A stretch of 53,877 nucleotides of DNA from Nanobdellota archaeon (lineage in GTDB: Archaea > Nanobdellota > Nanobdellia > Woesearchaeales > GW2011-AR9). The position numbers and the translations under genes are program-made. The notes under the pieces are model-generated. The model searched no databases, was not told the origin of the DNA, and saw only the letters and a program-made list of their open reading frames with translations. The stretch covers positions 1 to 53,877 of the forward strand of contig JAUYPX010000010.1 of NCBI GenBank assembly GCA_030697505.1. Reading direction: 5' to 3'. Positions within the stretch are counted from its first letter, which is position 1, and every line of letters starts with the position of its first letter. This document shows positions 29,801 to 44,965 of the stretch, piece after piece.

Positions 29801-31594
29801 GATGGCGTTGCTCCTGAAATAATTAAAGTTACACTCAAAACCACAGCTAACAAAACCAACGATGTATCGTATTACTACGACGGCTTTGCTCAATTAGTGC
29901 AGTTAAAGACCGATGTTGAGAATTCTCAGCAGATCGTCAAGAATATTTTCTATGACGGATTAGGACGAGTGAAACAGGAACAGAATCCCTACTTTGCTAC
30001 GATGACCATGGCAATTACCTCTCCGATGGTCGGAAATTATACTTTTTACACCTATGATGCTTTGGATCGAGTGATTGGAGTGATGAATTCTGATGGAACG
30101 ACCAAGAATATTACTTTTGATAGAAAGAATATCACTGACTTTGATGAGAAGAAGAACCGGCATACCTACATGATTGATGGCTATGATAGGATTGTGAATG
30201 TTTACGAATTTATGGCCGATCAATATATTCTTCAGAATGAGACCTATGTGACGACCTACGAGTATGATGCCAATGATAACTTGATTAAGATAACTGACAG
30301 TCAAGGAAATACATTCTCTTTCGCTTATGACTCCTTGAATAGAAAAACTGAGATGAGAGATCCAGATTTGGGAAGATGGATGTATGGATATGATACGAAT
30401 GGTAATTTGGTAAGTCAAAGTGGAGGAGGAGGAGATTTAATAAGCGGAGATGGCTTTTATAGAGAATATGATAGCTTTGGACAACTTAGCAAAATTAGGA
30501 CTGGTTCAACGAACACTTCGCCAGTACTGGAACAATACTTTTATGATGCAGATGGACAACGGATTAAAATTTGGAAGAATGATAGTGCTAATACAACAAT
30601 TTACACACCGTTTAGGGAGTTGATGAGAATCGTGAACTTGACTGGAAGCTATGAATTCACGTATATTTATGATGGAGATACGCAAGTAGCGAGAAAAAAT
30701 CCTGATGGGAGCATTCAATACGATCATACTGATCATCTTGGAAGTGTTGGTGTTTTAACTAACTCAACAGGTGGAATATTGGAAAATACACTCTACGCAC
30801 CTTATGGTGAAGAGTTATCTGGCGGTAATATGGATTTCAAGGGGTATACTGGTCAGTTTGATGACGAAGCAACTGGGCAAATGTATTATGGAGCAAGGTA
30901 TTATAAACCAGGAATTGGAATATTTATAAGCCCAGATTCTTTAATACAAAATGCTTTTGATCCTCAATTTTTGAATCATTATTCCTATGTCAGAAACAAT
31001 CCATATGCATATATTGATCCAAATGGAAAGAATGCTATTATTGTAACAAATTATAATGTAATGAGTCATAATCGGGTTACCGGTATTCCTGCCCATGAAG
31101 TGATAATTGTTGGAAATGAAGGAAGCTATACTCTTTATTCCTATAGTGAAGGCAAACTGGATCCTGCTCCAATTGAAGCAAGTAATGTAAATAAATTATT
31201 AAGTGAACTAAATGATAGACAATCAGAAAGTCAACCAGGATTTAAGGTTATAGCAGAATTTACAACTAGTTCTGACGAAGATAAAGTACTACACGATGCA
31301 GCAAAGAAGAATGCAGTAATAAACAAGATTGCTGAGGAGTATCAATGCCAGGATTTTGTTATTGGTACTTTAAATAGCATTGGTGTAGGCTATAGTCAAG
31401 GTTTTATTGACAAAAATGTTCAGCTGGTTCATGAAAAGAATATGCAATCTTCTGCAAACAAATGGAATGTTGAACGTGCCTTTAGTGGCACATTAGGAGA
31501 GTATATGAAACAACCAAGAGAGGTTACGGGAAGCAAAATGTCTGCTTTACAAAGACATTGGGATAGAGTTAAATCTTATCTCAGTAAAACCTAG
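26870..31594 (+). CDS. Secreted RHS/YD-repeat polymorphic toxin (SpvB-like N-terminus, FG-GAP/VCBS propeller, TcdB-midN-like region, YD shell, RHS core, variable C-terminal toxin)
   Basis: Signal ...MAFA|AD; ATYSYGLSVPKG...LSYSS...GAGWSL; repeated DVNxDGxxD; FREFRGFAKV; YD repeats; DHLGS...YYGARYY...NNPYAYIDPNG. Confidence 0.9.
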   Translation: MKKIFFVFFVVCMFAPMAFAADQFKPYLHTATVPEAPKLNLYGQYQTNLYAGAATYSYGLSVPKGTNNLQPSLVLSYSSQAIQGMPSIVGAGWSLSDNFIQRDNNGTLNNLSDDYFILNMEGNQHYLRSTSLGNFSTQVDSYFKIQNISYVGNDYDMYWLVTKKDGTQYRFGYNTTSSELAATSHVVQWKLDRVEDTFGNVMSYSYTESDGVAYLSQIDYEQRKVTFNYDNNRSDFRPVYVSGLYQNMSKRLSSVSVFSNDELVRRYDLTYTAISSGLTSLQNITYLGDDNSSRLHTISFDYYSSAPGFWQRSTHWPSPIMFTYDAVPDTGARMVDVNNDGFVDIAYGNTTTQEKKVYLNDKISGFNLSSWVLPHYFIHSDGTDNGVRFVDVNNDGYTDLLRARDGTRQLYLNNGTAWNLTSSWTIPVDFWNSGEGQGILISDVNNDGYQDILQSNSQNNRHVYLHNRSSSWKEDTSWYIPVNFTAASADTGVRLIDVNGDGLPDILHSDLGKAFKKTYLHNGSGWTETTAYFQIPSYFTGTSNEDYGVRFIEVNGDGLIDIISDRNENDVLEKTAWLNNGSGWAKNNSWINPNNFVDGSFNGHKRIVDVNGDGMADLMQAKDGVIATWIRNQTYQPVLLRVQNEYGGVMVINYTDSTSLNNSLEGYSTLGFNIKVVKNITGYNGMNGDFALNYSTRYNYSGGSYSFDFREFRGFAKVAEQTLSAVVTHYFHQDDALKGKEFKTEVTEGKNYSMSVKGFKFTNSSGVFNVTLEFSSTYRYDGSEIPVVVNTSYVYDRFGNVISVTSLGDVGVVGDERFTNYTYVLDDIFLDKVSSSKTLDNNSVKIKESKFYYDGLGLNGIGLRGALSKKEDWDDNGNNSFVYFDYDEFGNVKRQTDSLGNSMSYSYDGTHVYPVTIVNALGHVMTYEYDVGTGNLLSEKKNGIETSYQYDVFGRITKEIRPYDSSSLPTKKYNYSMDGVAPEIIKVTLKTTANKTNDVSYYYDGFAQLVQLKTDVENSQQIVKNIFYDGLGRVKQEQNPYFATMTMAITSPMVGNYTFYTYDALDRVIGVMNSDGTTKNITFDRKNITDFDEKKNRHTYMIDGYDRIVNVYEFMADQYILQNETYVTTYEYDANDNLIKITDSQGNTFSFAYDSLNRKTEMRDPDLGRWMYGYDTNGNLVSQSGGGGDLISGDGFYREYDSFGQLSKIRTGSTNTSPVLEQYFYDADGQRIKIWKNDSANTTIYTPFRELMRIVNLTGSYEFTYIYDGDTQVARKNPDGSIQYDHTDHLGSVGVLTNSTGGILENTLYAPYGEELSGGNMDFKGYTGQFDDEATGQMYYGARYYKPGIGIFISPDSLIQNAFDPQFLNHYSYVRNNPYAYIDPNGKNAIIVTNYNVMSHNRVTGIPAHEVIIVGNEGSYTLYSYSEGKLDPAPIEASNVNKLLSELNDRQSESQPGFKVIAEFTTSSDEDKVLHDAAKKNAVINKIAEEYQCQDFVIGTLNSIGVGYSQGFIDKNVQLVHEKNMQSSANKWNVERAFSGTLGEYMKQPREVTGSKMSALQRHWDRVKSYLSKT

Positions 31595-31634
31595 TTCGAA
31601 ATAATCAAATAAAAATCAATAAGAGGCATAAAAA

Positions 31635-32102
31635 ATGGAAACAAAAAAAGGTTGGTTTTTTTATAAGATTCGATACGATTTAGCTTCTTTTTTATCGGTG
31701 GTAATTGTGATTATATTATTAGGGGTATTATTTACTTTCCACGATAACTTTATACGCTGGGCATCTTTCCAGTATCTAGAATTTTCTTTACTACTTATAA
31801 GCCTCACTTTAGCTATAACACACTTTTTTTTAGGAAAAACAAGGAAATATATGCATAAAAGAAAAATCTTAGCAGTATTTGCATTATTTCTTATTGCTCT
31901 AATATTAATTTCTTCATTATTTATAGCACCAATAGGCCCATTTAATAGAGCTCCCTCTGAATACAATTACGGTTTTTCAATAGAAGAGTGTAAGAAAGAT
32001 GGTTATTATTGTCTTAATTACCAATTTTTTGGATTTGGTAAATGTAATAAGTGCAGAAAATTAATTGTTGATGAAAATGATGAGGCTTTAAAAAATGATT
32101 AG
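31635..32102 (+). CDS. Putative immunity protein (3 TM + Cys cluster)
   Basis: Directly after the RHS gene, AT-rich, hydrophobic. Confidence 0.6.
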   Translation: METKKGWFFYKIRYDLASFLSVVIVIILLGVLFTFHDNFIRWASFQYLEFSLLLISLTLAITHFFLGKTRKYMHKRKILAVFALFLIALILISSLFIAPIGPFNRAPSEYNYGFSIEECKKDGYYCLNYQFFGFGKCNKCRKLIVDENDEALKND

Positions 32103-32150
32103 TTTAAAAATAAGAATAATATTAATTTTGGTTTCTGGAGTTAGGATACA

Positions 32151-44623: not shown

Positions 44624-44664
44624 AGGGTAGAATTTAGTCTAAATCTATTTAAATTTTTCTTCTC

Positions 44665-44770
44665 AAAAGTGTATGATGCTTCTTTTGAGAAAATGAAAGA
44701 GGGTAAATTCTACTATGATGGGTTGGGATTGCGCGGAGTTACAAGAGGTGCGTTGACAAAGAAATTGACT
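44665..44770 (+). pseudogene. Relic of a paralogous large RHS gene
   Basis: Translates to ...KMKEGKFYYDGLGLRGVTRGALTKK, matching KIKESKFYYDGLGLNGIGLRGALSKK at ~29400-29480. Confidence 0.7.
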
Positions 44771-44819
44771 TCTGGAAACTTGATTGATGGCACGTAAACT
44801 ATATTTTATAAATAAAATT

Positions 44820-44965
44820 CTTCTTCCCGTTCTGTATTTAGTGAAAGTAAAAGTCAACCAGCCATATCTAGTTTAGCCCGGGCATCTGCAAATGCTAAAC
44901 CTGGCCAAACAGCAGGTAGTATTATAAAAGCATGGCGTGCAAAGCAGAAAAAAGGTAAAGATTGA
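44820..44965 (+). pseudogene. Relic of an RHS toxin C-terminal tail
   Basis: SSRSVFS...QTAGSIIKAWRAKQKK matches the end of the 37244 gene (38398-38536). Confidence 0.75.

Follow-up and report, generated by a model that had tools for sequence, protein, structure and literature searches.

Introduction

Rhs toxins of the TcdB/TcaC type combine a signal peptide, an SpvB domain, an integrin-like propeller, and RHS repeats with a variable tip, an immunity gene, and cassettes, and polymorphic toxin systems have been called rare in archaea (Zhang et al. 2012, PMC3482391). Here, we analyzed a 53,877-nucleotide stretch of DNA from a Nanobdellota archaeon (Woesearchaeales; assembly GCA_030697505.1, contig JAUYPX010000010.1). 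This window is the entire contig C26 of genome G000 (1.17 Mb, 96% complete) and carries an Rhs locus, whose genes are designated as in Table 1. Gene 26870 encodes a shell with a core and a tip but lacks one section of YD repeats (YD2); a separate gene, 35040, encodes that section, and a third gene, 37244, encodes a cartridge of YD3 repeats, core, and tip. The system is a member of the TcdB/TcaC-type Rhs toxins. We regard it as probable that the locus represents a shell of this type cut into leader-bearing genes, whose products, likely exported by Sec, would join in trans to form a capsule around a likely toxic, self-cleaved tip, and that the small membrane proteins encoded behind the tips are likely immunity proteins.

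The locus differs from the described TcdB/TcaC-type toxins in that the shell, the middle turn, and the core with its tip lie on separate leader-bearing genes, and in that two core clades occur in one locus. Split forms are not mentioned for this type in the available sections of Zhang et al. 2012 (PMC3482391), and the bacterial relatives found here are mostly of the one-chain form. The best structural match is the B/C shell of the toxin complexes (Tc, ABC), namely TcdB2-TccC3 and YenB with YenC1/C2/C3, which is a two-chain shell in which one B subunit accepts several C subunits (PMC11067744). In contrast, TcC brings ~680 shell residues, compared with ~210 in the cartridge, which has its own leader; moreover, the 26870-type chain would require a middle piece threaded through it, and immunity genes are present. 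TcA (PF18276) had no match in G000, and no control genome matched either.

The T6SS (type VI secretion system) effectors RhsA and Tse5 share the YD cocoon, the aspartyl autoprotease, and the encapsulated tip (PMC8765631, PMC10684867); however, they are single chains exported by the T6SS, whereas the archaeal N-terminus consists of a leader and SpvB. PAAR was not found in G000, in a search with positive results in 3 of 14 controls that did not extend to VgrG itself. Bacterial teneurin-like proteins are defined by a superfold of an Fn-plug and an NHL propeller. They resemble the archaeal system in their YD shell (Z 9.3, root-mean-square deviation (rmsd) 3.9, 419 aligned residues), hydrophobic membrane-active or enzymatic tips, and downstream immunity genes; in the available part of their description, no split form is described and the word "archaea" does not occur (PMC13018210). 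Enterobacterial rhs displacement arrays likewise line up displaced tips that retain more or less of a core (Jackson et al. 2009, PMC2935791), but their remnants belong to one clade and are near-identical per locus, whereas those of the window fall into two clades and share 65–81% identity within a type. No description of the split layout was found in the literature searched, which left most subscription journals uncovered, and no title or abstract opening dealt with split Rhs or with Rhs in DPANN; related loci could be described by Makarova et al. 2019 (mBio), on archaeal polymorphic toxins.

Results

A separate gene for one section of YD repeats

The N-terminus of 26870 begins with a hydrophobic leader and matches SpvB (E 4e-11), FG-GAP_3 (E 3e-19), and TcdB_toxin_midN (E 2e-16), and the RHS_repeat domain was matched in both 26870 and 35040. 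The YD repeats of 26870 lack ~240 residues (YD2), the gap being bridged by a Gly linker, and 35040, whose role is absent from the initial annotation, encodes exactly that stretch. Among the best 120 matches to the YD region of 26870, 39 (class A, 26870 included) joined YD1 to YD3 and the core through the same five-residue, mostly Gly-rich linker. Another 49 (class B, hereafter carriers) ran from YD1 through YD2 into an immunoglobulin (Ig)-like tail with the core absent, 30 were one-chain or distant, and 2 were partial. 35040 consists of its own leader followed by the class B C-terminus (~700 residues), and it shares 65% (YD2) and 51% (tail) identity with P0038.

Approximately nine stand-alone YD2 proteins were found, and their leaders, judged by hydropathy and by eye, were intact across 31–78% identity. 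Twelve loci with a stand-alone YD2 had at least 1 kb of upstream DNA, and each carried a class A gene or fragment there (L013, L015, L017, L025, L026, L088, L089, L091, L095, L098, L105, and L158; L099 and L106 were too short). In L017 and L158, the stand-alone YD2 was kept with no cartridge after it. The chimera 33945, initially listed among the variable C-termini, contains no Rhs core: its first ~71–74 codons are those of a 35040 copy (85% amino acid identity) fused to a tip, which rules it out as a third core type. Two altered carriers were also observed, one with an internal deletion that joins the SpvB start directly to YD2-Ig (L024:9605-11743) and one that has lost half of its SpvB/propeller region (L028:5791-10257).

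Predicted structures

The YD part of 26870 (residues 655–1392) was folded alone. The monomer model was a confident spiral, continuous through the linker at a predicted local distance difference test score (pLDDT) of ~77–81, with the core mostly at pLDDT <50. It superposed on TcdB2-TccC3 with a Z of 17.5 and an rmsd of 2.9 over 519 aligned residues, the superposition stopping at the linker. YenB aligned to model residues 1–442, ending at approximately residue 1096 of 26870, ~90 residues before the linker. Thus, the Tc cut lies elsewhere than the cuts in the archaeal shell, which fall at model residue ~530 and after YD2.

The predicted complex of 26870 with the YD2 of 35040 reached an interaction prediction score from aligned errors (ipSAE) of 0.88, 0.88, and 0.87, whereas the best of three controls reached 0.00; the mark applied to complexes is one that 116 of 157 solved complexes reach, compared with 2 of 215 mismatched pairs. 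The runs agreed in at least 98% of ~380 contacts, with a partner pLDDT of 90–91, and the pLDDT of 26870 was 87–88 with YD2 versus 72 with unrelated partners. YD2 contacted YD1 at regularly spaced positions (899–1194) and YD3/core at 1200–1380, a predicted pattern such as would be expected for an inserted turn. The tip in the cartridge monomer model was helical and of low confidence, and says little.

Cartridge family and related loci

37244 had been taken for an orphan; it proved to be a complete gene of leader, core, and tip with >100 relatives. It matched 182 proteins, and in the best 120 of them, 106 began at the YD3 start, 90 of these with a hydrophobic leader, while many of the other 16 were apparently called from a later start. 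Behind its leader, 37244 starts at the strand adjoining the position at which 26870 continues beyond the linker, and it supplies the last ~210 shell residues, the core, and the tip. The R/D/D residues of the autoprotease were invariant in 61 of 61 aligned cartridges. A laminin-G domain inserted inside the core region, or a PKD or beta-helix domain ahead of YD3, was seen in the cartridges L100:12058-16433, P0209, P0210, P0259, and P0270.

Loci fetched with YD2 usually ran in the order 24472-like gene, 25566-like gene, class B carrier, overlapping cartridge, small gene, orphans. To keep YD2 from biasing the selection, genomes were also searched with the 26870 junction, which matched 50 of 401 genomes in the order (G207, unpublished, and G000 among them), 15 of 114 family genomes, and 37 of 401 in the phylum sample. 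Forty loci were hand-picked, with preference given to multiple matches and long contigs; two loci came from each of two genomes, and some may duplicate earlier loci. A core-less carrier stood beside a separate core gene in 33 of these loci, class A occurred with a stand-alone YD2 in 2, and class A fragments only (3) or a cartridge only (2) in the rest. The system is therefore distinct from classical one-chain Rhs, since YD2 lies on a separate gene and none of the 40 loci encoded a one-chain protein. The cartridge lay either before or after the carrier, and additional domains occurred on either chain.

Named relatives of the Rhs genes were mainly Woesearchaeota or Nanoarchaeota, the other labels including Methanosarcinales, Aenigmarchaeota, and some bacteria. 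Bacterial loci were mostly one-chain, with L035, L036, L037, and L075 (bacterial labels) and L113–L115 also split. The first four are labelled Nitrospirae, Patescibacteria, and Altimarinota; transfer and mis-binning are both conceivable. The description of the locus as an archaeal polymorphic toxin/immunity locus was upheld: the contig encodes an archaeal RadA above the profile cut-off, and ATP synthase alpha/beta was not found in G000 (controls positive in 14 of 14).

Core types and switching

Self-BLAST recovered four core pairs (E 1e-82 to 4e-16): 30605–31020/32163–32578 (71%), 37508–37866/39086–39444 (79%), 39390–39532/40435–40577 (77%), and 40496–40580/43737–43821 (81%). Between type 1 and type 2, core DNA identity was 49–54% in long pairs and 57–66% in short stubs, with a longest exact run of 8–12 nt; within a type, it was 65–81%, with exact runs of 23 nt (26870/32151) and 60 nt (37244/39098). 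These data agree with the initial annotation, in which 32151 repeats the core DNA of 26870 and 39098, 40446, and 43738 repeat the 37244-type core with shrinking homology; the lengths found (144–149, 43, and ~28 codons) are near those given. TIGR03696 was matched above its cut-off in 26870, 32151, 37244, and 39098. The type-2 motif is atypical, as described previously, and type-2 cores still pass TIGR03696 (36.8 and 36.1 bits versus a cut-off of 32.5). The autoprotease residues are R1343/D1356/D1383 in 26870 and R192/D205/D232 in 37244, and R, D(+13), and D(+27) are present in all four long cores. The Arg presumably acts as in YenC2. The two Asp are catalytic in RhsA (PMC8765631).

The core tree kept 70 of 138 cartridge rows, four "cart" rows being class A orphans. 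It separated a clade of 48 class A proteins with 4 class A orphans (support 97) from a clade of 55 cartridges with the fused protein P0036 (support 99), the other 20 rows grouping with one-chain forms. The two core types proposed earlier are thus two separate clades: in type 1, the core is tethered to a shell without one YD turn, and type 2 is a free leader-bearing cartridge gene. A type-2 core occurred on 1 of 50 fused proteins (P0036). Judged by sequence, the two cores are old clades tied to two layouts. In contrast, classes A and B were interleaved in the YD1 tree, in which the starred branches force 9–10 changes and some rows labelled "B" are one-chain proteins with weak core matches; a single origin of class A shells was therefore rejected. 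Near-identical A/B pairs of YD1 were found, such as P0002 and L092, and L025/L026 carry both states in tandem. The shell front end switches endings repeatedly while the two cores stay apart, which explains the two series of the initial annotation.

The cross-type identity is too low for homologous exchange under the displacement model (PMC2935791), and the within-type identity suggests that the orphans are probably old displaced tips. The claim that the cores are not interchangeable holds for DNA recombination inside G000 but not absolutely, given P0036 and the several tip families that occur on both types; strict tip exclusivity between core types was likewise rejected. As for the two parallel tip-swapping series, tips do relocate between close relatives, but the series are not two ordinary rhs series. 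Tip 3 heads a class A protein in the close relative L089 and belongs to a core-less chimera in the window, which is direct evidence of shuffling. No credible alternative core-tip junction was found in the assembled contigs of three DNA runs (one study, one run possibly being the source of the window DNA; contigs drop rare variants), in which the candidates had only 21–51 letters on one side with 85% likeness.

Tips and downstream genes

Across the loci, 240 tips were sorted into 121 families, with some class A orphans included in the cartridge group. A same-strand open reading frame (ORF) followed 105 of 107 tips; 73 of the 99 small downstream ORFs had at least two transmembrane (TM) segments, and 97 were AT-richer than their own locus. 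In the window, the small genes had a GC fraction of 0.25–0.29, compared with 0.36–0.39 in the Rhs genes, and 2–5 predicted TM segments, and five tip/gene pairs recurred together in other loci. Pairs with similar immunity proteins also had similar tips in 13 of 17 cases against 0.21 expected, a figure inflated by kin. Position and co-inheritance thus make it likely that the cognate immunity gene lies downstream. The initial annotation counted seven tips, each with a small AT-rich membrane gene. Such genes are present, but the last lies on the minus strand, and an eighth tip remnant with a cut downstream gene raises the count (Table 1). The minus-strand gene is possibly the inverted immunity gene of tip 7; its score of 55 against the L029 gene was equalled by 14 of 2000 shuffles.

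Scores above the cut-off for known toxin families were obtained for 6 of 99 cartridges and, among tips with a soluble gene behind them, for 5 of 25. Those on the same cores in relatives comprise Colicin D, Tox-REase-7, Tox-ART-HYD1, Ntox35, Ntox47, Ntox28, barnase-like, and colicin E3-like. For tip 1, the Atlas rows included TseH (14% of members at 0.87) and IcsB_M (21% at 0.84), both <0.9, while the top row (0.93) was an unnamed cluster; a permuted papain-like fold is possible, as a lead only. Tip 2 had no Atlas match at 0.9 or above. A TM-like helix starts 99 of 190 non-fused tips, and a basic tail ends 86 of 190, compared with 6 of 57 one-chain controls. Tse5 has a pore-forming tip with a cognate immunity gene (PMC8765631, PMC10684867), and a Bacillus teneurin-like protein has a hydrophobic tip that permeabilizes cells only if exported (PMC13018210). 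By analogy with these, most window tips may act on the target membrane or envelope from outside, which would fit immunity proteins in the membrane. On contig C38 of G000 (1562–2750), a lone mini-module encodes a leader-like N-terminus fused to no more of the core than its final ~40 residues, and then a tip; a membrane gene lies behind it.

Gene map and neighboring elements

Table 1. Features of the Rhs locus in the window.
Feature	Position	Strand	Support
Leader-bearing accessory protein (24472), Ig-like domain	24472..25569	+	Big_3_5, E 3e-9
Leader-bearing accessory protein (25566), conserved C-terminal domain	25566..26858	+	No Pfam match; locus maps
Class A Rhs (26870): leader, SpvB, FG-GAP propeller, TcdB_midN, YD1, Gly linker, YD3 + type-1 core, tip 1	26870..31594	+	
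Five-residue Gly-rich linker in YD2 position	30419..30433	+	Equal gap in 39/120 matches
Tip 1, 188 amino acids (aa), His-then-Cys pattern	31028..31591	+	Atlas rows
Likely immunity gene 1, 3 TM	31635..32102	+	After same tip in L088
Type-1 orphan (32151): 141-aa core remnant + Gly-rich beta-type tip 2	32151..33188	+	
Likely immunity gene 2, 2 TM	33185..33631	+	After related tips in L015, L098
Core-less chimera (33945): leader + first YD strands of 35040 copy joined to tip 3	33945..34676	+	
Likely immunity gene 3, 2 TM	34678..35007	+	L089:3282-3602, E 5e-44, directly after tip 3 there
Stand-alone "missing turn" (35040): leader, YD2 (~35142-35864), Ig/PKD-like tail	35058..37247	+	ATG 35058 behind GGAGG site
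Cartridge (37244): own leader, YD3 + type-2 core, tip 4	37244..38536	+	Start overlaps 35040 stop (ATGA)
Likely immunity gene 4, 2 TM	38547..39035	+	After related tips in L010, L016, L097
Type-2 orphan (39098): ~145-codon core remnant + tip 5 (TM-like N-terminus)	39098..39988	+	
Likely immunity gene 5, 3 TM	40025..40435	+	After related tip in L009/L091
Type-2 orphan (40446): 43-codon core remnant + tip 6	40446..41111	+	
Likely immunity gene 6, 5 TM	41137..41544	+	No homolog among loci searched
Type-2 orphan (43738): ~28-codon core remnant + tip 7	43738..44382	+	First ATG 43768
82-aa 3-TM gene, convergent	44375..44623	-	Weak match to 82-aa gene after related tip in L029
Eighth tip remnant, resembles tip 4 tail	44821..44965	+	73% DNA identity, E 5e-15; translation
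DUF4013-like downstream membrane gene, cut by IS91-type element	45044..45355	+	Resembles post-tip genes of L090, L092

Homologs of 24472 lie upstream of carriers in L010, L013, L014, L092, L096, L097, and others, and the C-terminal domain of 25566 is fused to carriers in L031 and L193. The array also contains a DUF2283 gene after immunity gene 2 (33628–33858) and is split between tips 6 and 7 by an IS110 transposase and an MNT-HEPN toxin-antitoxin pair (41817–43672). Near its end lie a short remnant of a carrier's mid-shell region with a 42-bp copy of the end of the IS91-type element (44669–44828), along with that element (45346–46193), whose transposase spans two ORFs.

Immediately upstream of the Rhs operon, an operon of ~15 genes (14869–24309) encodes pilin-like N-termini with basic residues, Gly, and a hydrophobic run, which we take to resemble the class III leader pattern; these genes had no Pfam matches. 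Two big genes precede it (5830–14852), with products of 877 and 2083 aa, the latter with carboxypeptidase-regulatory, Ig, and Fn3 domains. A 139-bp repeat with an internal palindrome occurs at 5443–5581 and 53739–53877, with copies on contigs C37, C8, C30, and C27, mostly at contig ends, and partial copies on C2 and C34; it is likely a small mobile element or structured RNA.

Discussion

Our results suggest the following mechanism. The pieces would be exported, likely by Sec, as separate leader-bearing proteins. In the models, the YD2 of 35040 would thread between YD1 and YD3/core of 26870 for approximately one full turn and complete the surface on which the core folds. Closure of the shell would let the core cut the tip free inside it, with delivery of the tip upon contact; anchoring or targeting of the shell may fall to the Ig-like tails and the two proteins encoded upstream. 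In a class A shell, 37244 would most likely be housed in place of the tethered core on the 26870/35040 shell. Orphans would recombine within their own type only, type 1 into 26870 and type 2 into 37244, and recombination near the YD1 end may flip the locus between a fused state (A) and a carrier-plus-cartridge state (B).

Alternatively, 26870 might be self-sufficient with a shell one turn shorter, 35040 being the leftover tail of a class B carrier or serving the cartridge only. The 76 strands of RhsA form three turns, compared with four turns in Tc shells (PMC8765631), so that a shell could still close after the loss of one turn; the monomer model of 26870 is continuous through the linker, and the stand-alone YD2 is broken in two loci. 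However, the core is not resolved in that monomer, the confidence of 26870 rises with YD2, the YD2 leader stays intact across divergent proteins, and YD2 persists without a cartridge in L017; we therefore consider the shorter shell unlikely. An ordinary rhs array, with one full gene and two silent orphan sets as DNA donors and with 35040 and 37244 as fragments, would account for the shrinking core stubs, as in the displacement model (PMC2935791), and for the decayed tail of the array. Against it, 37244-type genes form a large leader-bearing family adjoining core-less carriers, often with overlapping stop and start, and nothing else could supply a core-less carrier with its core, which makes such an array very improbable.

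The locus might also be an adhesion or self/non-self recognition device, whose tips would be tags or membrane anchors rather than poisons. The Ig/PKD, laminin-G, and beta-helix domains on carriers and cartridges, the frequent TM-like helix at tip starts, the pilin-like operon upstream, and the window tips without a toxin family match would all suit this device. In contrast, the same cores carry known toxin families from Colicin D to colicin E3-like, the protease residues are invariant, the downstream genes are tip-specific, and the hydrophobic tip of the exported Bacillus teneurin-like protein permeabilizes cells (PMC13018210). An adhesion or recognition device thus seems quite doubtful to us.

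Several points weigh against the split-shell mechanism that we favor. The seven window tips match no Pfam or NCBIfam toxin family, L105 and L158 have a broken stand-alone YD2, and no such YD2 follows the class A orphan of L161 in the ~9 kb downstream. Structures of similar shells (TcB-TcC, RhsA) have been solved, and the two parts of one divided gene can pass because the predictor already knows the fold; thus, the passing complex shows likeness, not binding, and its calibration is only rough because our own alignments were used. The low pLDDT of the core in the 26870 monomer may stem from a shallow alignment (39 rows), and the cartridge alone is predicted to fold most of its core well. The related loci were hand-picked, kin among them are not independent, and L025/L026 and L009/L091 are near-copies. 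The trees were built by FastTree only, and with a within-type identity of only 65–81%, present-day swapping inside G000 may be rare.

More tentatively, the system could be a protein-level cartridge weapon of DPANN archaea, an extension of the split shell that we regard as possible but not probable. The shell would be closed by the tethered core or by any free cartridge, so that several payloads could be used at once without recombination; the missing turn, by letting the protease fold, would serve as a safety catch, the cassette would flip the states, and the tips, mostly directed at membranes, would perforate host or rival cells.

This study also provides insights into Rhs systems in archaea. 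Fifty of 401 sampled genomes of the order match the system, though polymorphic toxins were thought to be rare in archaea (PMC3482391), and the majority of the loci examined have a split design that did not come up in our searches. An Rhs shell apparently allows cuts at two new sites followed by reassembly in trans, in one case with a turn threaded through a single chain; more than 100 uncharacterized tip/immunity families are also supplied. If the predicted assembly takes place outside the cell, payloads would be changeable as loose cartridges. The locus offers a candidate, both concrete and expressible, for the means by which small archaea with reduced metabolism may attack rivals or hosts.

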